Positions 26,601-42,652 are shown, numbered from the stretch's first letter. The stretch is 64,000 bases of DNA from Pseudomonadota bacterium (GCA_018001635.1 JAGNHS010000009.1:3091-67090); one strand, 5' to 3'. Translations and numbers: made by a program. Notes: a model not told the origin generated them from the sequence alone.

Positions 26601-29570
26601 ATGAAGAAGTTAGCTCTACTCGTTTTAAGTATATTAATTTTCAACAATTTTGTTCTTGCCGATGAGGCCATTAAGAAATCCGTAACGATTGATATAAGTT
26701 CGGCCAATCAATTAGATGCCTCCGATAGAGCTCTGGTTGAGTCTTTAAAGGCTGCATTGGAAGCTAAACTTTTTGCTTGGGAAAAATTTTCAGTAAGCGC
26801 ACCCTCGTCGGTTTTTGAAAATTCTGAATTCGTGAGTTTATCTGATTTAATCATTCAGCCCGATAATTCTGAAGTGCTAAGCTTGGGTGGCGGAAAATTA
26901 AGTGCAGATCAAGTAGCTCAGTTAAAAGAAGAGGGAATGTTTGTTGTTCCTTCTGTGAAATACCCTGGTCAAAATCATGTGTGGAAAATGAGTGCTTGGT
27001 TTCAGCACGGAACTAAAACTTTAAACGTAAAGTTTACAAATCTTCAAACTAAAGCGGCTACGCAACTTTTGGTAAAAATTCCCCAATCTGTAATCGGTGG
27101 AGATGTGAGTGATGGGGCGACTCTTCGTAAGGGAATTAGAAGAATTGGAATGGGACTTAGTGGATTGTTTGATGCCTTGCTTGGAAAAATTCACAAAAAA
27201 AATACTTTTAATGAATACGAAGTGGCTGAGCTTCTTAGAAATGCTTTTGTAAAACTAAATCCTTCAGCAAATATTTTAGACATTCCTACAAATATTGAGC
27301 TTTATGCACCTATTGTTGAAAGAATTGCTGCGCAAGTAAGTCAGGAATGGGAAGAAAAAGTTCAAGAGGAAAAGAAAGCTGAATTGGTCGCTCAGGCTGA
27401 AAAGCTTGGTTACTATTTAAATGATTCCGCTTTAGCGAACGCATATATAAAGGAAGGTTTAGAGTCTGAACTCATAAAACTTTTTGATATCAGATTGTCG
27501 GAGTCACAAGATCTAGCAAAAATCTCTACTGAGTTGGCTCCCGCCTTGGTTAGTCGCCTTAAGGCTAATAAAATCATTGAGCGTTATGAAGCTAATATTC
27601 AGTCTGAACTTGAAATAGTGCGTTCTCAAATTCAAGCAATAGTCGCAAAAGAACGACCTTATTTGTCAAAAATACAAAGTTGGTTTGATAAAGAAGTTGA
27701 GCGCAGATACGCAGAAATTTATTCGAAAAGAAGATTTTCTCAATACGATGAACTCGTCAGCACACTTAGGCTTTCTGGTTACACAAATGAATCTACTCGA
27801 GTTGCCAATTTACTTAAATTTCTCAGTGAAAAAGCGGACGAGCATGACTCTCAATTACGAAACGCTTTAAGTCCAGCCAGAACTTTCGAAGTGAGCCGTC
27901 AAATATGGCGTTCTAAAAATTGGGGCATTATTGAAGACCTTGCTCGTGATGGTCGCACACATTATTCATTGGATGATGAACGTGTATCAAAGGTTACAAC
28001 TGATGTTCCAGGTTGGCGTTTGTGGTTAATTGCCGCTAGAACTCGCAAGTATATGGCCGATGGTGTTTACGCCTTGGCTTATCTAAACATTGTTAACGGT
28101 CCGATGGGACTTCGTTCATTGTTTGGTAAAGATCCTTTCTATGCCACTAAAACAATCGATCCTGATACAGGAAAAATTATTGATCAAAAAAGTAGTTTGA
28201 CTCAAACAATGGCTTCTCGTTGGGCTGCCATTGATGCTCAAGTTAAACGTGATATTGAGCGCGCTATGGAAAAGAAAAGTAGTAGCCTATTGTCCGAAGG
28301 AGCGTATAAGAAATTAACAAATTTAAGATATAAATATATTAAACAATTATTTTTGAAGGGTGGCTTGCTTCTAGGCCAGCCTGTTCTAACTACTTGTAAC
28401 GTTGTTGTATCGGCTGGACTCTGTGTAACAGCACCGGCGTGGTCGCCTGTGTTGGCGACTCTTCAATGGGCCTTTAACTTGGTCCTTTATGATAGAGACA
28501 ACGCAAGTCAGTCTCGAAGTCGTTACAGTGCACCTTTAATTTCGCCTCTTGCACAAGGTTTAATAGCCAATGTTGGAATTTTTGGTGTGGGTCAGAGTGT
28601 GCTGAGTGTGTTCAGGATTATGTGGCACGCTTTGGCTTCTGCTGGAATTGAAACTTGGGCTGCTGCTCAATGGGCTGGATTAAAAGCAAAAGATGTTGTG
28701 ATACGTGGTGCTCTTTTAAATAGTTCGTTTTTGAAAGTTCCTACTGATGATACTTGGTTAGCTCGTAGAATTTCGGGTCCTGGACTTGAAAGCAATTACT
28801 ACTATCAAATTAAACCTGATTTAGCGTTGATAGTATTGCAGTTACAGCTTGAGCAGACCGAACTTAGATTGTTTTATAATGAATCTACTTATAAAGCTTT
28901 GGAACCCCATCGAGTTGCTGAGAAAGAATTAGCAGCTATTTTTGGTTCATTCGCGGACGTGGGACCACTTAATTCTCGTGGTTTTCATGAAGAAATTTTG
29001 AAATCTGTGGTCGATGCAGAAAAGGCTGTTGGAGATGCTGTAAATAATAGTCAGGAATTTTTAAATAAGGTTTCTGGAGTGAGTCAGGTGAATCTCTCTA
29101 AAGTGAGATTGAGTGCTGAGGCTTTGGATGAATTGATTTTGAAATCAGTTGCTGTTGTTGAAAAATTTTATAATCAAAACTTATTGCCTAAGTTTGCTGG
29201 AGATGAAGCTCGTGTGACAGCTTATTGGAACCAAAACAGTTTAACTCAAGGGGATTTCTTGGGACTTGCTAAAATACTATTAGTTGAAGCCTTTGCTGGT
29301 CAGGGAATACTCACTCCTTTAAAGGATATTGCGGGTAATTTCAGTATTGTAGTGAATGATGAGCCAAGTGTTGGAGATGTCGCTGCTAAGGTTTTAGATG
29401 GAGCCACCATTCCTTCTTTGGACACTTTGACTCCAGTAGTAGTAGACACAACTAAGTCTAAAGATGTAGCTCGCTTAAATGGAGCACCTTCTGTGCAACT
29501 AAACCTTGCTCAACTTTCTACTGCTACTTGTGAGCTTAGACTTCTTCCGAAAATAGAAGCCAGAAATTAA
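26601..29570 (+). CDS. Large hypothetical exported/membrane-associated protein (989 aa)
   Basis: Signal peptide MKKLALLVLSILIFNNFVLA. Long helical charged region. Two hydrophobic stretches in the C-terminal half (LLLGQPVLTTCNVVVSAGLCVTAPAW..., LIANVGIFGVGQSVLSVF...). No recognisable domain. Confidence 0.8.
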   Translation: MKKLALLVLSILIFNNFVLADEAIKKSVTIDISSANQLDASDRALVESLKAALEAKLFAWEKFSVSAPSSVFENSEFVSLSDLIIQPDNSEVLSLGGGKLSADQVAQLKEEGMFVVPSVKYPGQNHVWKMSAWFQHGTKTLNVKFTNLQTKAATQLLVKIPQSVIGGDVSDGATLRKGIRRIGMGLSGLFDALLGKIHKKNTFNEYEVAELLRNAFVKLNPSANILDIPTNIELYAPIVERIAAQVSQEWEEKVQEEKKAELVAQAEKLGYYLNDSALANAYIKEGLESELIKLFDIRLSESQDLAKISTELAPALVSRLKANKIIERYEANIQSELEIVRSQIQAIVAKERPYLSKIQSWFDKEVERRYAEIYSKRRFSQYDELVSTLRLSGYTNESTRVANLLKFLSEKADEHDSQLRNALSPARTFEVSRQIWRSKNWGIIEDLARDGRTHYSLDDERVSKVTTDVPGWRLWLIAARTRKYMADGVYALAYLNIVNGPMGLRSLFGKDPFYATKTIDPDTGKIIDQKSSLTQTMASRWAAIDAQVKRDIERAMEKKSSSLLSEGAYKKLTNLRYKYIKQLFLKGGLLLGQPVLTTCNVVVSAGLCVTAPAWSPVLATLQWAFNLVLYDRDNASQSRSRYSAPLISPLAQGLIANVGIFGVGQSVLSVFRIMWHALASAGIETWAAAQWAGLKAKDVVIRGALLNSSFLKVPTDDTWLARRISGPGLESNYYYQIKPDLALIVLQLQLEQTELRLFYNESTYKALEPHRVAEKELAAIFGSFADVGPLNSRGFHEEILKSVVDAEKAVGDAVNNSQEFLNKVSGVSQVNLSKVRLSAEALDELILKSVAVVEKFYNQNLLPKFAGDEARVTAYWNQNSLTQGDFLGLAKILLVEAFAGQGILTPLKDIAGNFSIVVNDEPSVGDVAAKVLDGATIPSLDTLTPVVVDTTKSKDVARLNGAPSVQLNLAQLSTATCELRLLPKIEARN

Positions 29571-32198: not shown

Positions 32199-32516
32199 TT
32201 ACTTACATTTGTAATCAATACTTTTAACTTTTGAGGACCCGAATAAAGCAATGTCGCCATCGGTGGGGTCTTTGTCGTGGACGCTTTCTTTGAGAATTAC
32301 GTATTTGCTTTTGCCGCCGCAGGCTTCGGCAATTTTTGTGAGCGCATTTTGATGGCGAATTTCTACCATTTCTTTGAGACCATTGGGGTTGTATGAAATA
32401 GTTCCTCTATCTTTTGGGGCTGGTGATAGAGCCGAGCCGCCTTTGCCTTTTTGAGATGTGGTTGTGCAATAAGATAAAACGAATAAGGAGCTCAATAAAA
32501 TCATGAAGCTTTTCAT
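32199..32516 (-). CDS. Small lipoprotein (105 aa)
   Basis: MKSFMILLSSLFVLSYC places a lipobox-like Cys at residue 17. Two further Cys. Confidence 0.7.
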   Translation of the reverse strand: MKSFMILLSSLFVLSYCTTTSQKGKGGSALSPAPKDRGTISYNPNGLKEMVEIRHQNALTKIAEACGGKSKYVILKESVHDKDPTDGDIALFGSSKVKSIDYKCK

Positions 32517-32768: not shown

Positions 32769-33995
32769 ATGACTAAAATTAAAGTTAAAAACCCTATCGT
32801 TGAAATCGATGGCGACGAAATGACCCGAATCATTTGGACTATGATTAAGGATCGTTTTGTAAGTCCTTATTTAGAGCTTCCGATAGAGTACTTTGATTTA
32901 GGTATTGAAAATCGCGATAAGACTGATGATCAAGTCACAATTGATTCCGCAAATGCTATTAAAAAATATAACGTTGGAATAAAATGCGCCACCATCACTC
33001 CCGATGAAAAGCGCGTAGAAGAATTTAAATTAAAGAAAATGTGGCGTTCTCCTAATGGAACGATTCGAAATATTTTGGGCGGTACAGTTTTTCGTGAGCC
33101 CATTATTTGTCGAAACGTGCCTCGCTTAGTTCCAAATTGGACTAAGCCTATATGTATTGGTCGTCATGCTTATGGTGATCAATATCGCGCCACGGAAATG
33201 CTTCCCAAGGGGAAGGGCAAACTTTTTTTAGAATTCCAACCTGATAATGGCGGTCCTTCTGAGAAGATTGAAGTACATCATTTTGATGGCGATGGTGTGG
33301 CTCTCGCTATGTTTAACACCGATGAATCTATCGAAGGATTTGCAAGAAGTTGTTTTAATCAGGCGCTCATGAAAAAGTGGCCGCTTTATTTGTCTACAAA
33401 AAATACAATCTTAAAAAAATACGACGGACGCTTTAAGGATATTTTTCAAAAAATATATGAAGGTGAATTTAAATCACAATTTGAAAAAGCAGACATCACT
33501 TATGAGCATCGTTTGATTGACGATATGGTGGCCGCTTGTTTGAAGTGGAATGGGGCCTTTGTTTGGGCTTGTAAAAACTATGATGGCGATGTGCAGTCAG
33601 ATACCGTGGCTCAAGGTTTTGGTTCCTTGGGACTTATGACTTCGACTTTGATCACCCCAGATGGAAAAACTATGGAAGCTGAGGCTGCGCACGGAACAGT
33701 AACTCGTCACTTTCGTTTGCATCAGCAAGGAAAGCCAACTTCGACTAATCCAATAGCGTCTATATTTGCGTGGACTCAGGGTCTTGCGTTTAGAGCAAAG
33801 CTTGATGCTAATCAGGAGCTTGCGAAATTCTGCAAAACTCTTGAAGAAGTTTGCGTGTCTACGGTTGAAGCAGGACAAATGACTAAAGACTTAGCGGTTT
33901 GTATTCACGGTAACGACGTTCGCCCCGATCAGTATCTCAGCACTGAGACCTTTATCGGAGCGATCGATAAGAACCTTCGAGCGAAGTTAGGGTAG
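32769..33995 (+). CDS. icd: NADP-dependent isocitrate dehydrogenase (eukaryote-like homodimeric subfamily, 408 aa)
   Basis: N-terminus [21 protein letters not shown] and overall collinearity with IDH1/IDH2-type enzymes. Confidence 0.95.
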
Positions 33996-33999
33996 TTGT

Positions 34000-34815
34000 T
34001 TATTTCTCTAATTCTCCTGTAAGTTGATTTTTGGGAACAATTATCCAGGTATGTTTACCTTTCATAAGTAGAAGCTTTGTTTCTTCCTTTATTTTTGAAT
34101 CACTTGAAGTGATGCTAGATAATGAGGAAGCGCCAGCTCCCCCTGCACCAAGACTAGAACCAATATTGCTTCCTATATTAGTCGAGTTTTGAGTTTTCCC
34201 TGTTAATAAATTTGTATTTGTTGAACCAGTGCCGCTTCCTAGAGTACCGCTTGTTCCAGTTGTTCCATTACCACCTGTAGAAAATGATGTGCCATTGATC
34301 ATGTCATCTCCTAAGCCTCCAAAGGTAGTTAAGTTAGCGTCATTAGATGTTGAGGTGGTGCCAATAAAACCTCCATTATTATTAAAGAGTGGATTAGATA
34401 AGCCCCCCCAACCACCATTAAGAAATGTTCCAAATAAAGATGAGCTAGAGCTAGATATCCAAACGCTACCGCCTCCACTACCGCCGCCACCACCACCACA
34501 ATTTCTGCATGGATGTGTGATTGCTACTATGCAGTTACCACTTTTACCTCGACCGTACTTACAGGGATCCTTCGGTTTATTCGGAGGAGGAGGTGGTTGT
34601 ACTGGCGGAGGAGGTGGAGGAGGCATAACTGGAGGAGGAGGAAGCCATGGAGGAGGAATTACGCCGACTAATTCAATTGGAGGTGGTTCCGTATTTGTGT
34701 CGTCTTTAGAGTGAACGTCACTATTTGGGTAAGCATTAGAAGAGAGAAATCCAAACAATATAAGGCTAATACAACGAAACCAAGTTGGTTTAAGAATGTT
34801 AATTGGAAGAGACAT
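34000..34815 (-). CDS. Secreted low-complexity protein: poly-Pro spacer, 4-Cys knot, poly-Gly, G/S/T/N-rich region
   Basis: Signal peptide (CISLILFGFLSSNA-YP). PPPWLPPPPVMPPPPPPPVQPPPPP, then CKYGRGKSGNCIVAITHPCRNC, then GGGGGGSGGGS. SD AGGTG lies 6 nt upstream. The gap to the upstream gene is 15 nt. Confidence 0.75.
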   Translation of the reverse strand: MSLPINILKPTWFRCISLILFGFLSSNAYPNSDVHSKDDTNTEPPPIELVGVIPPPWLPPPPVMPPPPPPPVQPPPPPNKPKDPCKYGRGKSGNCIVAITHPCRNCGGGGGGSGGGSVWISSSSSSLFGTFLNGGWGGLSNPLFNNNGGFIGTTSTSNDANLTTFGGLGDDMINGTSFSTGGNGTTGTSGTLGSGTGSTNTNLLTGKTQNSTNIGSNIGSSLGAGGAGASSLSSITSSDSKIKEETKLLLMKGKHTWIIVPKNQLTGELEK

Positions 34816-34830
34816 AAATTACACCTACTT

Positions 34831-35910
34831 TCAAAGAAAACTCAAAGAGGTACTTCCCACTAATGAATAAGTACTTCTTTGATGTTTTCTCCATAGAATG
34901 TTGGTTGCCGTTAAAGAAACAATAAATGGAAGCTTTTCGAAGGGAGCATAACTTAAAGTTGAGCAAAGTTCCTTTCTAACATAATCAACTGCAAAACCTA
35001 CTTGAGGAATAACTCGAGTTCCTATTCCAAAAAATGGAGCAATACCACCTTTGCCATTTCTTGAATCTACAAAATCAGTAAAATTTTTATTTCCATATCC
35101 AAAAGTGTACTGAATTTCACTAAAAGAATAGACGGGCAATCTAAGTTGTATTTTTTGAGAAATACTTAAATATCTTGAACCTAAAAATTGATTGTCTTCT
35201 TTTTTATAGCCCCACTTCAATACATGACTCATACCGTAAGCAATTGAGGCACCTGCAATAAATGGAAGCATTCTTGAAAACTTTAGATGGACTCCTCCTA
35301 AATCAAAATCAGGTATTCGACCAATTTCTAAACTTTTACCTTTTCTCGTTTTATAAATACTATCGGCCACTATTGAAACTGACCCGCCTATATATTTGGC
35401 AGGATTTCCAAATCCAAAACCACCACCAATGGCTGCATCGTTAATTGAGGCTGTTCTTTTAGAGGGAGAGTAAACACCATATCCAAAAAGTGTTCCCCAC
35501 GAACCCCCAAAACCAGAAGGAGCTGAGCCGGACGAACCGGGATTAGGCCATTCTTTCATGATTTCTATTTTATCTCTTCTGAAATTACGCATCAAGTCAA
35601 TTAAGGTTGTGTTATAGAATTCGTGATAATGACGACTTAGCTCATCCTTTTTCTTTGGATTTTCTTTTATTTTGTTTTTTAACTCAGTCTGAATGATAAC
35701 TTTATAATCTTCTTTAAAATCCTTAAAAATTTCTTTTTGTTCTTGAGTAAGACGATCCTCTTCTCTTTTAAGATCAGCATCAGTAGGGAAGCTTGTATCT
35801 GTGGGAATTTTAGATTTTGAGACAATATTTTGGGCCATTGAATTCAGAGTAGATAAAACTAAGCTAGTTAAGAGTAAATTTTTTTTTATATCGTAAGTAT
35901 TCATCATCAT
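34831..35910 (-). CDS. Outer-membrane-barrel-like protein with an N-terminal charged helical region (paralog of 37226-38290)
   Basis: Signal peptide. About 90 aa of K/E-rich sequence. Then Gly/aromatic alternating segments. Shares conserved blocks with the paralog (GNPxKYIG, IAPFFxxGTRV). Confidence 0.8.
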   Translation of the reverse strand: MMMNTYDIKKNLLLTSLVLSTLNSMAQNIVSKSKIPTDTSFPTDADLKREEDRLTQEQKEIFKDFKEDYKVIIQTELKNKIKENPKKKDELSRHYHEFYNTTLIDLMRNFRRDKIEIMKEWPNPGSSGSAPSGFGGSWGTLFGYGVYSPSKRTASINDAAIGGGFGFGNPAKYIGGSVSIVADSIYKTRKGKSLEIGRIPDFDLGGVHLKFSRMLPFIAGASIAYGMSHVLKWGYKKEDNQFLGSRYLSISQKIQLRLPVYSFSEIQYTFGYGNKNFTDFVDSRNGKGGIAPFFGIGTRVIPQVGFAVDYVRKELCSTLSYAPFEKLPFIVSLTATNILWRKHQRSTYSLVGSTSLSFL

Positions 35911-36025
35911 TAGAATATCTTAAGTAAATTATTTTGTTTGATTCTAAATGGAATTTTTACAAAATCTTAATAGTTCAAAATTTCAGAAACTTCTCTTAGT
36001 GAGTCTATTCGGATATTCTATAATT

Positions 36026-36907
36026 ATGGATAAAAAACATGGCTTAAAAAGAATATTTATCAGTGCCTGTTTTTTGACGCTTATTCAATGTTCTTCGGAT
36101 TCAGAAACTAAATCTACGAGCTCTATTGTGGGAGGGGATCTTTCTGTAAAAAACTCTCAACTGCTTTTTGGTTTTAATTTTATTAATAAGCTTGAAGAGC
36201 TGCCTGGCTATGCTGAATGTAAATTCGAATTTAAAACGGATGGCTTTCCGCCTAAAAAGTTTATTGTTAGGGCTAAAGTTGGTCAGAAAACGGTATTAGC
36301 TCCAGTGGCTTTTCCTCAATTTAAGTTGTCGGGCATAGATTGTGGTGATTATGGAAGTCTAACTAAGGACATTTTTAATCCCGAAAATCCTCTAATAAAA
36401 ATGGAGTCCGACAGAGTGCAGTTTGCGGGGCTTTATGAATTAACGACTCGGAATGGGGCGTTGAGTGTACAATTACGTAAACAATGGTCTTTAGATTTTT
36501 TGCGAAGAGTTGCTTTTGAGTCGGGCGCCTCATGGGGAGGGCGTTTGTATAGTGCTTATTCCTCTAAGCAAATCCAAGCTGGAATGATTCCAAAGTCTAT
36601 TTCAAGTCCTGTAATAGTGGTGAAAACTAGTGGATCCAAAACGAAAAACATTGCGCTCATTGATAGAGAAAAGCGAGGTTTAGAGAAACTAATTCAATCC
36701 TGTATGCTCGATGAAAATTTTCGTAATCCCATAGTTGTAGGTTATTTAGCAATGCAGGTAAAATTCTCAAATGGAAAATTTGAGCAATTTGAAAAGGTTC
36801 AAGATCAGGGCACCTACTCTAAAGAATTCCAAGACTGCGTAAAATCAAAGCTTCAAGAGCACGATTCAAAAGACCCAAGTATCAACAGAGCTGCGTTTAA
36901 GATTTGA
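36026..36907 (+). CDS. Cys4 lipoprotein/periplasmic protein (paralog of 39236-40081) with a TonB-C/AgmX-PglI-like C-terminal region
   Basis: MDKKHGLKRIFISACFLTLIQC signal/lipobox (track ORF is open from 35948). Conserved blocks GFPPK, FNPE, CxxDExFRNP, GKFEQFE, FQDCVK. Confidence 0.75.
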   Translation: MDKKHGLKRIFISACFLTLIQCSSDSETKSTSSIVGGDLSVKNSQLLFGFNFINKLEELPGYAECKFEFKTDGFPPKKFIVRAKVGQKTVLAPVAFPQFKLSGIDCGDYGSLTKDIFNPENPLIKMESDRVQFAGLYELTTRNGALSVQLRKQWSLDFLRRVAFESGASWGGRLYSAYSSKQIQAGMIPKSISSPVIVVKTSGSKTKNIALIDREKRGLEKLIQSCMLDENFRNPIVVGYLAMQVKFSNGKFEQFEKVQDQGTYSKEFQDCVKSKLQEHDSKDPSINRAAFKI

Positions 36908-36915
36908 GACTTTTT

Positions 36916-37209
36916 TTAGCGGCCAGGCTTTTTTGTGACAACATAAACGTCACCACCAATTTTTGAGGCTTGGCCGTTAGTACCAGCCATTGCACTTCTA
37001 ACAGCTCCAGCAATAGCGGTACCAGCGGCTGCGGCGCCAGCAGAAGCACCAGCTCCTGTATCAACGGAAGGTAGGCTATTTGATTTCTTGCCTGGTGGTA
37101 AAACAAAGGTATCTTTTGAAGGTATTCCACTTCCTGCAAATGTTGAAAATATACTTAAAGAGACCGCAAAAGTTGCAGTTTTTAGACTAAGCATTTTATA
37201 ATTTTTCAT
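36916..37209 (-). CDS. Small secreted Gly/Ala-rich (glycine-zipper-like) protein
   Basis: Signal peptide (AVSLSIFSTFA-GS). GAGASAGAAAAGTAIAGAVRSAMAG. SD AGGAGG lies 4 nt upstream. The gap to the upstream barrel gene is 16 nt. Confidence 0.7.
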   Translation of the reverse strand: MKNYKMLSLKTATFAVSLSIFSTFAGSGIPSKDTFVLPPGKKSNSLPSVDTGAGASAGAAAAGTAIAGAVRSAMAGTNGQASKIGGDVYVVTKKPGR

Positions 37210-37225
37210 AGGGCCTCCTGTATAG

Positions 37226-38290
37226 TTATCGACTTATAAAGTCGTAGAAAAATGAACCAGAAACACTTATCATTTTGTTCAATCCACCGGCTTTATTCAA
37301 GTTAATTGCAAGTAAAGAAAATGCTAAGGGAAAGCTACGAAATGGTGTGATGTTGATGAAGGCGTTTATTCTTTTGGCCTCATATTCTATGCCTAGCCCT
37401 AGGGGTGGGGCGACTCGAGTTCCTACGCTAAAAAATGGAGCGATTATACTTCTAATTTTACCGTTCTTGTTCACACGAGTATCATCATCTACGAATCCTC
37501 CACCTCTACCTAAACCAAAGCTAAATTGAAATACGCTGAAGTATTCGTGGGGTAAGCCCTTAACATAATAGTGAGTTAAAACTAAGTGCTCAGATCTACG
37601 AAGATCAATTTGGCTTTCATAGCCGTAGCTTGCTACATAACTTTCACCTAGTCCCAACGCAAAATTACCGGGCAAATTTCTATGTAAAGATACGTGATAG
37701 GCCCCTATTGAAAAGTCTGGTGCTTTTGTAAGGTCGTAACGTTTTCCGTTTTTTGCCGTATAAAGGTCTTGAAAATCAAAAGTATTTTGAATTCCTATAT
37801 ATTTATCTGGATTACCTAATCCAAATGAAAATCCAGCGCCAGCATCATTCTTGTTAGAGTACATATCTTTAAATGTATAAACACCCCAGAGTGCAACTTG
37901 ACCCCATTCCATGCCTGAGCCTGTTGGAGAGGTTCCCGAAATTCCAGGGAACATCCATTCTCTATAAATTTCAATATTTCCTAGGGTGTAGTTTCTTTTT
38001 AAGTCGGCGAGAGTTTCGTTATAGGATTGTTCGTAATCCTTTTTGTATTGAGCTTTGTTGGCGGGATTTCTTTTAATTTTTTCTTTGAGCTCTTTTTGAA
38101 ATAACTCCTTTAGGGCTGCCTTGGCCTCATTAAAATGTGCGAGCTTTTCTTCGCTGAGTGGAGGGTAGTCTTCTTTTGGAGCTGAAAAACCTGTGTAAGA
38201 AAACAGAATCATTAAAATTAGTGTTTTTTTTTTAAAAAAATTGCTTTTAAAAAATTTGCTCGAAATTGATTTAGGATAAAGTTTGAGCAT
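37226..38290 (-). CDS. Outer-membrane-barrel-like protein with an N-terminal charged helical region (paralog of 34831-35910)
   Basis: Signal peptide. Blocks ELKEKIKRNP, YNETLADLKRNY, IEIYREWMFPGISGTSPTG, GNPDKYIG, IAPFFSVGTRV. Confidence 0.8.
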   Translation of the reverse strand: MLKLYPKSISSKFFKSNFFKKKTLILMILFSYTGFSAPKEDYPPLSEEKLAHFNEAKAALKELFQKELKEKIKRNPANKAQYKKDYEQSYNETLADLKRNYTLGNIEIYREWMFPGISGTSPTGSGMEWGQVALWGVYTFKDMYSNKNDAGAGFSFGLGNPDKYIGIQNTFDFQDLYTAKNGKRYDLTKAPDFSIGAYHVSLHRNLPGNFALGLGESYVASYGYESQIDLRRSEHLVLTHYYVKGLPHEYFSVFQFSFGLGRGGGFVDDDTRVNKNGKIRSIIAPFFSVGTRVAPPLGLGIEYEAKRINAFINITPFRSFPLAFSLLAINLNKAGGLNKMISVSGSFFYDFISR

Positions 38291-38425
38291 AGCCTAAAGT
38301 ATCTCAAGAACTAGAGTTTATTCCAAATATTTCAAAAGCAATTAAATGGCGAAATTGACCATTTTGATTTTTGTATATTTTATATTTTTTTATATTTCGA
38401 ATTAAAACAATGTATTCTGCATTTA

Positions 38426-39196
38426 ATGCCTAAAACTCGTAGCCTTTTAGGCTTTATTCTTTTTATTTCATTTAGCTCGTCTCAAGCCGATGAAATTTTT
38501 AAAGCTTCTCGGATGGCAAGTGATTTTTCTTCACCTGTCACTAATTCTATACCTAGAACAGTTTTGCTAAGTGGAGCAGGTCTTACAATCTTTCTGGCCA
38601 TAACTAAAAAAAATGTGGCAGAGCCCTTTCGAGATGATTTAAGGAAAAATTCAATTGCTACACAGCTTAGACCTCTGGGAGCTTTTGGTGGAAGCGGCAT
38701 TGCCAACGCAGCCTATGCTGTAGGGATGTTGGGTGATTATTTTATTCGAGGTTCTCGTAAAAGTTTAGGCAATGCTACGCTTATGAGTGAAGCCACCTTT
38801 TATTCTGCAGCCTTGGCTTATGGATTAAAAGAAACAACACATGAACCGCGTCCTGATAGGCCGAAAGAGATGGATTCATTTCCTTCAGGAAGTAGTGCTT
38901 TATCCTTTTCCTTTGCTAGCTATGTGGGTGCAAGACATTCTATTTGGTGGGGCGCTGGAGCTTATACTTTGGCAACGATAACGGCAATGAGCAGACTTAA
39001 TCGGAATCGACATTACTTACATGATGTCACGGCTGGGGCAACATTAGGAGCGGCCTATGGTCTTGGAGTCTATTTTCAAAACTTTCATAAGAAAAATCAA
39101 AAACTCGGGGTTAATACTCAAGAAGATTTTAAACCTGAAATATTAGCGTGGATTGATTCTGAGGGGCTCAAGATTTTAGCAACAAGTCATTTTTAG
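38426..39196 (+). CDS. PAP2-superfamily phosphatase (variant C2 motif)
   Basis: C1 motif KETTHEPRP (Kx6RP). C2 reads PSGS instead of PSGH. C3 motif SRLNRNRHYLHD (SRx5Hx3D). Several TM segments. Confidence 0.8.
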   Translation: MPKTRSLLGFILFISFSSSQADEIFKASRMASDFSSPVTNSIPRTVLLSGAGLTIFLAITKKNVAEPFRDDLRKNSIATQLRPLGAFGGSGIANAAYAVGMLGDYFIRGSRKSLGNATLMSEATFYSAALAYGLKETTHEPRPDRPKEMDSFPSGSSALSFSFASYVGARHSIWWGAGAYTLATITAMSRLNRNRHYLHDVTAGATLGAAYGLGVYFQNFHKKNQKLGVNTQEDFKPEILAWIDSEGLKILATSHF

Positions 39197-39235
39197 CTCT
39201 TACAATAATTATAAAAATGCCTAATATATAGATAA

Positions 39236-40081
39236 GTGAATATATTTCAAAAACTATTATTTATAGTGGCTTCTTTTGTTTTACTTTTAAAATGTGCTTC
39301 GAATGCTGACAAAAATGCCAATCCCAATTTGGGCGGAACTAACGTTTTATTTGAACTTGATGTTCCAGAAAAATTAAAAAAAGATACAGGCACTGGAACA
39401 TGTAGTCTTGTATTTTCTACTCTTGGCTTTCCGCCGAAACTCAATGTGGTTAAATCAAGCGATCAAAGCAGGATAACTGTAGGGAAAGTTCCCAATGAAG
39501 ATATTAAACTGACTCAAATTTACTGCAACGGAAAAAAAAGTGTTTTAAAAAGTGCTTTCAATCCAGAAGTTACTAAAATTAATATTCAAAAAAATAAAAC
39601 TCATTATTTAGGAATGATTGTTTTATATTTTCTTGAAGATGGTGGATTTAGTTTTTATGTTAAAGCCAGTGAGTCTAAGCGTTTTTTAAAAAACAACTAC
39701 GAACAAGTCACAGCAACAGATAAAGATAACCTTGTAAGTCCATATTCTGGTAAAGCTTTAACGGCTGAATTGATAAACGCCGCACCTGAAAAGCGAGGTG
39801 TCGATTTTAAGGCTGAAGTTCCTGGGGCAAAATCACAAGAAGATAAAATGCGCCTCAATGCCTCGGTCAAAAAATGCGCAAATGATGAAGATTTAAGAAA
39901 TCCTCTACATTTTGGAAATTATAAATTTGAAGCTAGTTTTTTAGATGGGAAATTTGAAAGTTTTGAGGTTAAAGAAAATAGCAATGTGTATACTCAACAG
40001 TTTACTGATTGCTTAAAACAGAGTTTTAAAACCTATATTCCCTTGACTCAAAAGAGAATTAAATACGCTTTGTCTATTTGA
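39236..40081 (+). CDS. Cys4 lipoprotein/periplasmic protein (paralog of 36026-36907)
   Basis: GTG start. Signal FIVASFVLLLKC. Blocks GFPPK, FNPE, CANDEDLRNP, GKFESFE, FTDCLK. Confidence 0.75.
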   Translation: MNIFQKLLFIVASFVLLLKCASNADKNANPNLGGTNVLFELDVPEKLKKDTGTGTCSLVFSTLGFPPKLNVVKSSDQSRITVGKVPNEDIKLTQIYCNGKKSVLKSAFNPEVTKINIQKNKTHYLGMIVLYFLEDGGFSFYVKASESKRFLKNNYEQVTATDKDNLVSPYSGKALTAELINAAPEKRGVDFKAEVPGAKSQEDKMRLNASVKKCANDEDLRNPLHFGNYKFEASFLDGKFESFEVKENSNVYTQQFTDCLKQSFKTYIPLTQKRIKYALSI

Positions 40082-42019: not shown

Positions 42020-42652
42020 TTAAAAGGGATAGCCCGCTCCAAGAGAGAACATATAAACACTTCTGTGAATACTGAATGAAAATTCAGAGTAGAAAACCCA
42101 GGGGTCTAGATTTTTATGCGACCATTTGCTACCGACGAGCACGGTCCAGGGGTACTTGTCAGGCAGTTTGTTGGCCCAAAGCATCTCATATTGAAGGGCG
42201 GTATAGGGAGTGAAGAAGCCTTGGGTGAGCTCAACCTTTTTAGACACTAAGGCGCCAAGTTGGCCTAAGTAGAAGTTAAAGTTAGCGCTTCGCACATCAT
42301 CGCGAAGATAGGAGAAGCCGCCTAAGAAAGATAGGCCAATTTGACCATCAACATCCGGGAGTAAATTGTACTTCGCTAGTCCCCCGATTTGAAGATTGGT
42401 GGTCCCGGTTGCCGCTAAAAGGTCGAGGTCTAGAAAATCGTCGATAATTCCTGTTTTAATGTGACCTGAAACGTTAAAACCACCACCGTTGTTAAAAATG
42501 ATATCGCTTTGCACCTTGGTTTCAAAATGACCTGTTTTAGTCGTTTCAGCAGTTTGCATTAAAGAAGTGCCAACGCCGCAAAAAACTTTGGTGCTCGTCG
42601 CCAAGAAAAATGAAATCATTATTGTGGGTGTAAGTTTTCTTATGCTGAACAT
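42020..42652 (-). CDS. Small outer-membrane beta-barrel protein
   Basis: Signal peptide, alternating strands, C-terminal SLGAGYPF. Confidence 0.7.
   Translation of the reverse strand: MFSIRKLTPTIMISFFLATSTKVFCGVGTSLMQTAETTKTGHFETKVQSDIIFNNGGGFNVSGHIKTGIIDDFLDLDLLAATGTTNLQIGGLAKYNLLPDVDGQIGLSFLGGFSYLRDDVRSANFNFYLGQLGALVSKKVELTQGFFTPYTALQYEMLWANKLPDKYPWTVLVGSKWSHKNLDPWVFYSEFSFSIHRSVYMFSLGAGYPF

Follow-up and report, generated by a model that had tools for sequence, protein, structure and literature searches.

A family of outer-membrane barrel proteins with a conserved secreted partner gene, present as two tandem modules in a Bacteriovoracaceae bacterium

The 64,000-nucleotide (nt) stretch JAGNHS010000009.1:3091-67090 (assembly GCA_018001635.1), hereafter called the window, originates from a Bacteriovoracaceae (predatory-type) bacterium and has a G+C content of about 39%. 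Its sequence indicates that a conserved envelope module is present in it as two old copies in tandem, each comprising genes for an outer-membrane barrel protein (barA, barB), a secreted partner (cargoA, cargoB) and a divergently encoded lipoprotein (lipA, lipB). What is new here is an outer-membrane protein (OMP) family with a conserved partner gene. The pairing of the barrel gene with a gene for a secreted partner is real and conserved across phyla, as far as gene neighbourhood can show, and the barrel family is large, extends over at least three phyla and is without a name. The genes of the two copies are listed below (lengths in amino acids, aa); a preliminary description of the region, made from the DNA alone, had placed all seven open reading frames (ORFs) and their strands correctly.

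34000..34815, minus strand: cargoA, 271-aa partner of barA, with a signal peptide and low complexity
34831..35910, minus strand: barA, 359-aa predicted outer-membrane protein with a signal peptide, helical hairpin, linker and 12-stranded barrel
36026..36907, plus strand: lipA, 293-aa lipoprotein with lipobox LIQC, divergent from barA
36916..37209, minus strand: cargoB, 97-aa partner of barB, with a signal peptide
37226..38290, minus strand: barB, 354-aa paralogue of barA and orthologue of the single barrel P0004 of locus L009
38426..39196, plus strand: PAP2-family phosphatase (Pfam PAP2, E 2.5e-10), located between barB and lipB
39236..40081, plus strand: lipB, 281-aa lipoprotein with lipobox LLKC, paralogue of lipA

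BarA and barB are paralogous proteins with 36% identity over 297 aa (E 5e-58), and the common blocks quoted in the preliminary description are present in their alignment. The lipoproteins are paralogous as well (28% identity, E 3e-33) and contain, in addition to the lipobox Cys, four further invariant Cys residues, which bears out their earlier designation as Cys4 lipoproteins. Since identity is as low as 36% for the barrels and 28% for the lipoproteins, the duplication is old rather than recent. The start codon of cargoA is located 15 nt past the barA stop codon in the same frame, and its ATG is preceded by AGGTG; cargoB starts 16 nt past the barB stop, with AGGAGG preceding the ATG, so both the spacing and the motifs reported previously were verified. 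The barrel gene and the tightly linked gene downstream form a two-gene operon, the core of the module, in which the second gene is probably translationally coupled. A tblastn search of the window revealed no copies of barrel, partner or lipoprotein genes beyond these two sets. Scanning for promoters and terminators yielded fewer sites than in shuffled controls and nothing common to both divergent intergenic regions.

The module of barrel, secreted protein and lipoprotein was also found as a single copy in a relative (locus L009/L010), in agreement with the preliminary description. P0004, the barrel encoded there, shares 52% identity with barB; the flanks are the same as in the window, namely ABC-transporter and Lactamase_B_2/Peptidase_S66 genes. 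At L009 the lipoprotein gene (25% identity to lipB, E 4e-38) is divergent from the barrel gene, and behind the latter, overlapping its stop by 4 nt, comes the gene for a secreted protein of 97 aa that is rich in Gly and Pro. The PAP2 gene, previously counted as part of copy B, is absent from this locus, and it was therefore rejected as a module member. It is present in two closer relatives: L001, a Joint Genome Institute (JGI) metagenome contig in which the whole neighbourhood is found in unchanged order, and L005 (CAZSSP010000003.1), a metagenome-assembled genome (MAG) of an uncultured Bacteriovoracaceae bacterium that is the genome record nearest to the window. Because the single-copy module of L009 lacks PAP2, the three-gene module is ancestral, the pair in the window arose by duplication, and PAP2 was inserted later. 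Copy B is the conserved orthologue; barB of L001 is 94% identical to that of the window, with a ratio of nonsynonymous to synonymous substitution rates (dN/dS) of 0.07. Word-indexed homologue searches yielded just 3-6 relatives each, scanning of genomes turned up no species other than the window's own, and a first metagenome scan with Bdellovibrionota-type patterns gave zero matches. Between the window and L009, the orientation of the module with respect to its flanks is reversed. The window contains genes for isocitrate dehydrogenase (32769-33995, plus strand) and PAP2 (38426-39196, plus strand), and L009 instead has a GNAT acetyltransferase gene (2809-3372) and no PAP2.

Adjacency of a barrel gene to a gene for a secreted low-complexity protein, which the preliminary description had proposed to check in relatives, was retained wherever downstream sequence existed. 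At about 20 loci in three phyla, the same-strand downstream gene or genes include one for such a protein, and among the family loci with downstream sequence none was met without it. Locus L011 could not be scored because its sequence stops right after the barrel; the upstream neighbour in this case is a divergent gene for a 94-aa secreted protein ending in GGFIVRGPSR. More distant barrels, which have a K/E-rich N-terminal region like those of the window, are followed by short partners. These comprise 85 aa at L013 (signal peptide, low complexity, spacing 20 nt), 111 aa at L014 (signal peptide, low complexity, spacing 21 nt), 76 aa at L032 (overlapping the barrel stop) and 92 aa at L020, an alphaproteobacterial plasmid (Gly/Thr/Val-rich, 27 nt downstream). 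Segments DTVTITAPGGG and GGDFTVVV of the L020 partner recall DTFVLPPG and GGDVYVV of cargoB. The partner gene overlaps the barrel gene or lies no more than 30 nt from it at non-cyanobacterial loci.

Four types of downstream gene were found at about a dozen distinct cyanobacterial-type loci. They encode a small lipobox protein (L008, L030), a secreted low-complexity protein of 200-480 aa with a common C-terminal "..YN..I.." helical domain (L015, L018, L021/22, L025/26/34, L027/28/31, L035), an RTX-like repeat protein as the first gene (L006/L007, L017, L023/L024, L033), or a protein that has a CHAT domain and a low-complexity, secreted N-terminus (L029). A gene for a secreted YN-type protein follows the RTX-like gene in both loci inspected, L006 and L017, and the barrel, RTX-like and YN-type genes may form a conserved unit. 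The RTX-type proteins located directly after the barrel in this one cyanobacterial subgroup consist of Gly/Asp nonapeptide repeats and have no obvious signal peptide (L006 7382-7993, L017 1769-2641, L023 4272-5144, L033 3922-4791). The partner at L018 (4084-5076, Oscillatoria acuminata PCC 6304) is 330 aa long, with repeats of the PAPVQPPPV type making up about 100 residues; the helical domain at its C-terminus produced a sub-threshold match to the Pfam spidroin C-terminal domain (E 0.009), probably by chance.

An exhaustive profile search with the barrel family retrieved 984 cluster representatives at E<=1e-3, including 212 at E<=1e-30. Members share the C-terminal part of about 235 residues, while the N-terminal regions vary widely in length. 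The P-x-G-x-G-x-x-W-G motif ahead of strand 1, the conserved lumen Gly residues and the C-terminal aromatic signal are all present in both barA and barB, and most family members end with the canonical OMP C-terminal signal G-Y-x-F-x-F (e.g., GYSFSF). The barrels and other module proteins of the window, 42 members of the family and the cyanobacterial-type partners were assigned to no family by Pfam or NCBIfam; the matches obtained were limited to PAP2, SLH, RTX and CHAT, on accessory or distant proteins. Searches of PDB sequences, whether with a single protein or with the family profile, returned only low-complexity or coiled-coil noise. The earlier suggestion that the barrel belongs to an undescribed family is thus upheld, and a literature search found papers on OmpM, SlpA and Som-type SLH porins only and no description of this family. 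Five long members (P0018, P0020, P0031, P0049 and P0151), which are probably cyanobacterial, carry two or three SLH domains ahead of the barrel, and the sole NCBIfam SomB-porin match, in P0018, is restricted to the SLH region. One member adjoins PsbO and NdhL genes, and its host is therefore cyanobacterial. Protein WP_015151865.1 of Oscillatoria acuminata PCC 6304, annotated as "hypothetical protein", also belongs to the family. A 256-aa member is encoded on the Pseudosulfitobacter pseudonitzschiae plasmid (L020) and matches the family profile in hhalign with 98.3% probability (E 2e-14); the proteins of interest in this species have the accessions WP_224557360.1 and WP_224557358.1.

The fold of barA was modelled with AlphaFold2 from a 42-sequence alignment, giving a mean predicted local distance difference test score (pLDDT) of 86.8 and a predicted template-modelling score (pTM) of 0.76. 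An N-terminal signal peptide is followed in the model by a K/E-rich helix-turn-helix hairpin with antiparallel helices (residues ~44-111), a conserved and well-ordered Pro/Gly/Ser linker (residues 112-139) and a beta-barrel of exactly twelve strands (residues 140-357), where the preliminary description had anticipated a signal peptide, a helical part and about a dozen strands. The barrel is small and its loops are short. The leader is of the signal-peptidase I type, and the barrel protein is not a lipoprotein. Foldseek comparison of this model with PDB retrieved only generic outer-membrane barrels with weak E-values (6e-5 or worse). The highest target-normalised template-modelling (TM) score, the normalisation used for all values given here, was obtained for the 12-stranded porin KdgM (4pr7; TM 0.63, root-mean-square deviation [rmsd] 4.4). 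It was followed by the 12-stranded porin NanC (2wjq, 2wjr; TM 0.52-0.55), the amyloid transporter FapF (5o65, 5o67, 5o68; TM 0.42-0.48, probability ~1.0, E ~1e-3) and the COG4313 channel 4rl8 (TM 0.43), and the beta-domains of EspP and EstA ranked low (TM 0.17-0.36). Neither structure nor profile searches assigned the barrel to a known porin or lipid-transport family. Foldseek had been recommended earlier for checking the strand count and an N-terminal coiled coil; the twelve strands were found, but in place of the coiled coil the model has a hairpin. According to the alternation pattern of the sequence, and not to coordinates, the lumen-facing strand positions are occupied by 14 Gly and 14 Ser, and charged residues together with His account for just 10. 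The Gly residues G166, G168, G226, G271 and G273, predicted to face the lumen, are among the best-conserved residues of the family. Such a Gly/Ser lining would suit a lumen accommodating a polypeptide chain.

The partner proteins are largely of low complexity and probably disordered. CargoA contains a poly-Pro stretch, a CKYG..G..C-IVAITHP motif, a low-complexity region rich in Gly, Ser, Thr and Asn, and the C-terminal strand motif TWIIVPKN. CargoB, with 71 residues in the mature form, consists of a DTFVLPPG motif, a Gly/Ala-rich core and the C-terminus GGDVYVVTKKPGR. No similarity between the two was detectable (best E 1.1). All that they have in common is the position of the gene, a signal peptide, a composition biased to Gly, Ser, Ala and Thr, and a short motif near the C-terminus that is hydrophobic and strand-like. 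Internal repeats in cargoA did not exceed controls, the self-alignment score being 38 versus 40.9 +/- 7.2 for shuffled sequences. CargoB is retained in three strains with 80-88% identity and a dN/dS of 0.14-0.22, a value indicating purifying selection, and it is therefore a genuine gene, which settles the question raised earlier of whether the 97-aa Gly-rich ORF is real. A 161-aa ORF antisense to cargoA (34229-34714, plus strand) is a mirror-image poly-Pro/poly-Gly reading and very unlikely to be a gene; L001 has a comparable ORF on the antisense strand (8050-8376).

Copy A differs sharply between strains. In the window and L001, barA is 58% and cargoA 41% identical, whereas flanking proteins are 94-99% identical. 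DNA identity falls from 87-97% to 19-79% exactly over window positions 33999-35925, corresponding to 6870-8686 of L001, and recovers on both sides. Synonymous divergence (dS) of the barA alleles is 1.34 versus about 0.4 for flanking genes, and dN/dS is 0.25 versus 0.01-0.11. The cargoA allele of L001 retains the frame and the motifs. Thus barA and cargoA are replaced together, as a unit, between strains, and the pattern looks like that of an old balanced polymorphism or of alleles replaced by recombination. Diversifying selection focused on the loops of barA was considered and rejected, given that divergence is even between strands and loops and dS is raised too. A third strain (L019) carries a copy A allele nearer to that of L001, and the contig of L005 breaks inside lipA, beside the copy A cassette.

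The lipoproteins have a much narrower distribution. In a word-indexed homologue search of 5.8 billion proteins, their family was restricted to this lineage, that is, to close relatives and the L009 protein. The AlphaFold2 model of lipA (pLDDT 72.9) consists of an N-terminal beta-sandwich and a C-terminal alpha/beta domain. A fold search against PDB with this model found nothing significant; the best matches were transthyretin-like beta-sandwiches (E>=3e-3). The type VI secretion system (T6SS) lipoprotein TssJ was among the matches with an E-value of 0.08, and no functional claim is made from it.

We propose, with a probability of roughly 40%, that the barrel holds or passes the extended chain of its partner and thereby anchors or displays the partner at the cell surface. 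The barrel and partner would form a dedicated pair, in which the extended Gly/Ser/Ala/Pro-rich chain of the partner could be held in, or passed through, the Gly/Ser-lined lumen. In this way a portion of the partner would come to be surface-displayed or fixed to the outer membrane. The N-terminal part of the barrel protein, which is variable, would be periplasmic and face the cell wall, as a helical hairpin in the window and as SLH domains in the long relatives. In this Bacteriovoracaceae lineage the divergent Cys4 lipoprotein has joined the module as a putative accessory. We infer the physical pairing, the threading or export, and the surface exposure from the protein sequences. The strain-variable copy A cassette fits a surface-exposed, strain-variable structure.

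Several observations weigh against this proposal. The SLH domains of the long relatives point to cell-wall tethering as a main role of the family. The barA alleles are 53% identical in predicted loops and 56% in strands, and surface-directed selection is not supported because their divergence is not concentrated in the loops. All-against-all BLAST of 11 partners revealed no cross-lineage homology, which leaves position, signal peptide and composition as the basis for linking barrel and partner; the motif shared by partners (aromatic, hydrophobic, then Pro) is too short for statistics. Mature cargoA has four Cys and a long poly-Pro rod, and the cyanobacterial-type partners possess a folded-looking C-terminal helical domain, features that fit a periplasmic partner better than one threading a narrow pore.

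The main alternative, which we regard as somewhat less likely, is a purely periplasmic tether or spacer between the outer membrane and the cell wall. The barrel would then be only the membrane anchor, with the N-terminal domain and the partner both periplasmic and linking it to peptidoglycan, in the manner of a small OmpM/SlpA-type protein. Such a role is suggested by the long members, whose barrel is preceded by two or three SLH domains, and by the small size and short loops of the barrel. It is also consistent with the cargoA Cys pairs, which suggest periplasmic folding, and with the long poly-Pro or Pro-rich repeat rods of cargoA and the L018 partner; poly-Pro rods are characteristic of proteins that span the periplasm, for example TonB. 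However, neither an SLH nor an OmpA-like domain, nor any other domain recognisable as peptidoglycan-binding, is present in the window barrels, and the partners cargoB and those of L009, L013, L014 and L020 contain neither a Pro-rich rod nor a recognisable wall-binding part. A tether also leaves unexplained why the lumen-facing Gly are the most conserved residues. That the barrel is simply a small porin with substrate specificity, like KdgM, NanC or Tsx, and the downstream gene unrelated or merely co-expressed, is unlikely. The best superpositions were indeed with the 12-stranded monomeric porins KdgM (4pr7, TM 0.63) and NanC (2wjq, 0.52-0.55), but none of the 42 members matched Pfam KdgM and the lumen positions are Gly/Ser-rich, unlike the charged linings of KdgM and NanC. 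Moreover, a gene for a secreted protein recurs downstream across three phyla, overlapping the barrel gene or within 30 nt of it at non-cyanobacterial loci, and barrel and partner are replaced together between strains.

The preliminary description had favoured the logic of curli or Fap, with the barrel exporting a Gly-rich polymerising protein as an amyloid or matrix fibre and the lipoprotein acting as an assembly factor; this is now the least probable of the explanations considered. In its favour, the partners are rich in Gly, Ser, Asn and Thr, coupled to the barrel and conserved in their adjacency to it, and the arrangement of N-terminal helices, linker and 12-stranded barrel does resemble that of FapF, which was retrieved among the 12-stranded barrels (TM 0.42-0.48). 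Against it, no sequence similarity to Csg or Fap proteins was found, and cargoA and cargoB are unrelated. CargoA has no imperfect repeats, cargoB has just 71 mature residues, and genes for a nucleator, chaperone or protease are not present. The FapF match (E ~1e-3) is weaker than those of KdgM and NanC, and the helices form an antiparallel hairpin rather than a long coiled coil. The SLH domains of distant members and the long poly-Pro stretches of some partners suit a wall-facing role in the periplasm no less well.

Display or anchoring of the partner through the barrel could be extended, more speculatively and in our view with some doubt, to a widespread unrecognised display or export device in Cyanobacteria, Bdellovibrionota and some Alphaproteobacteria. 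A Gly-lined barrel would thread a fast-evolving disordered protein to the surface, with SLH, RTX/CHAT or Cys4 lipoprotein as lineage add-ons, and copy A might serve as a determinant of surface identity, for example in prey contact or phage evasion. A functional pairing, should it prove to be one, would concern an unannotated OMP family of about a thousand sequence clusters with an obligate fast-evolving secreted partner, occurring in cyanobacteria, predatory bacteria and a diatom-associated roseobacter. Threading or display, if true, would add a small barrel-plus-substrate system to the few diderm routes by which unfolded proteins are inserted into the outer membrane or moved across it, and would give a handle on "hypothetical" proteins in sampled cyanobacterial genomes. 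The SLH-bearing members bear on outer-membrane-to-wall tethering in Terrabacteria, and copy A is a candidate locus of surface variation in predators of a lineage that has been little studied. Should the barrel turn out to be a tether or a small porin of the ordinary kind, the result would be a useful family definition of modest interest.

Several neighbouring genes of the window are also of note. A 210-aa protein (42020-42652, minus strand) with a signal peptide, alternating hydrophobic segments and the C-terminal sequence GAGYPF had no Pfam or NCBIfam match. It resembles a small outer-membrane barrel of another unannotated family and is kept in L001, L005 and L009 beside the Peptidase_S66 gene. 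A 105-aa putative lipoprotein (32199-32516, minus strand) with a lipobox-like LSYC sequence, three Cys and no family match is kept in L001 and L009 (101 aa in the latter), always beside the amino-acid ABC transporter. Just upstream of this transporter the window contains a 989-aa ORF (26601-29570, plus strand); at the matching position L001 (12890-15910) encodes a 1006-aa protein with a match to Pfam PF25228 ("Lips").

Comparison with known systems shows partial likenesses. Homologues of Csg or Fap were not found among the module proteins (Pfam/NCBIfam, E<=1). Curli employs a lipoprotein channel of the CsgG family, whereas no CsgG-domain match was obtained here and the barrel is predicted to be a 12-stranded OMP of the monomeric type. 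Curli subunits contain imperfect curlin repeats; cargoA has no repeats, cargoB comprises only 71 mature residues, and no Pfam match was found. FapF, the plugged outer-membrane transporter of the Pseudomonas functional-amyloid system, is like the window barrel in having a C-terminal 12-stranded barrel after N-terminal helices and a linker, and in being encoded in an operon with secreted low-complexity proteins. On the other hand, it has no sequence similarity to the window barrel, its Foldseek E-value is ~1e-3 with TM below that of KdgM and NanC, and it carries a trimerising coiled coil, while the helices of barA are modelled as an antiparallel hairpin. The Fap operon encodes the repeat subunits FapB and FapC together with FapA, FapD and FapE, compared with two genes, no repeats and no family matches here. 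In the fap operon the fibre-subunit genes precede fapF, which is the final gene, whereas in the window the barrel gene is first and the partner gene second.

KdgM and NanC, porins for acidic sugars, resemble the window barrel in strand number and size and gave the best superpositions (TM 0.52-0.63, rmsd 4.4-6.1), yet Pfam KdgM had no match in the 42 family members at E<=1. These porins are not known to have an N-terminal periplasmic domain or a coupled partner gene. Their pores have a charged lining, in contrast to the mostly Gly and Ser residues predicted from the sequence pattern at lumen-facing positions of the window barrel. OmpM, SlpA and Som-type SLH barrels tether the outer membrane in Terrabacteria and cyanobacteria (PMC10628300, PMC9388160). 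The long family members are like them in having N-terminal SLH domains, a C-terminal barrel and a periplasmic N-terminus, whereas barA and barB lack an SLH domain and have a 12-stranded barrel. OmpM/SlpA-type barrels are reportedly larger trimeric porins with at least 16 strands and a long coiled-coil stalk.

In RcsF-OMP complexes, autotransporters and intimins, a disordered segment lies inside the lumen of a small OMP, with part of it exposed at the surface; autotransporter and intimin barrels likewise have 12 strands. The module has no sequence relationship to these proteins, and its threaded chain, unlike theirs, would be a separate gene product. As regards type V secretion, neither the window proteins nor the 42 members matched Pfam Autotransporter, and the model has twelve strands, compared with 16 in TpsB of two-partner secretion, and no POTRA domain. 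A self-exporting mini-autotransporter with an N-terminal passenger was rejected, since SLH domains in relatives put the N-terminus in the periplasm. The module lies outside all of these families because their defining sequence features were searched for and are absent from it. By analogy, it may work most like small barrels paired with a chain in the lumen, such as the linkers of autotransporters and intimins, RcsF-OMP, and FapF with its substrates.

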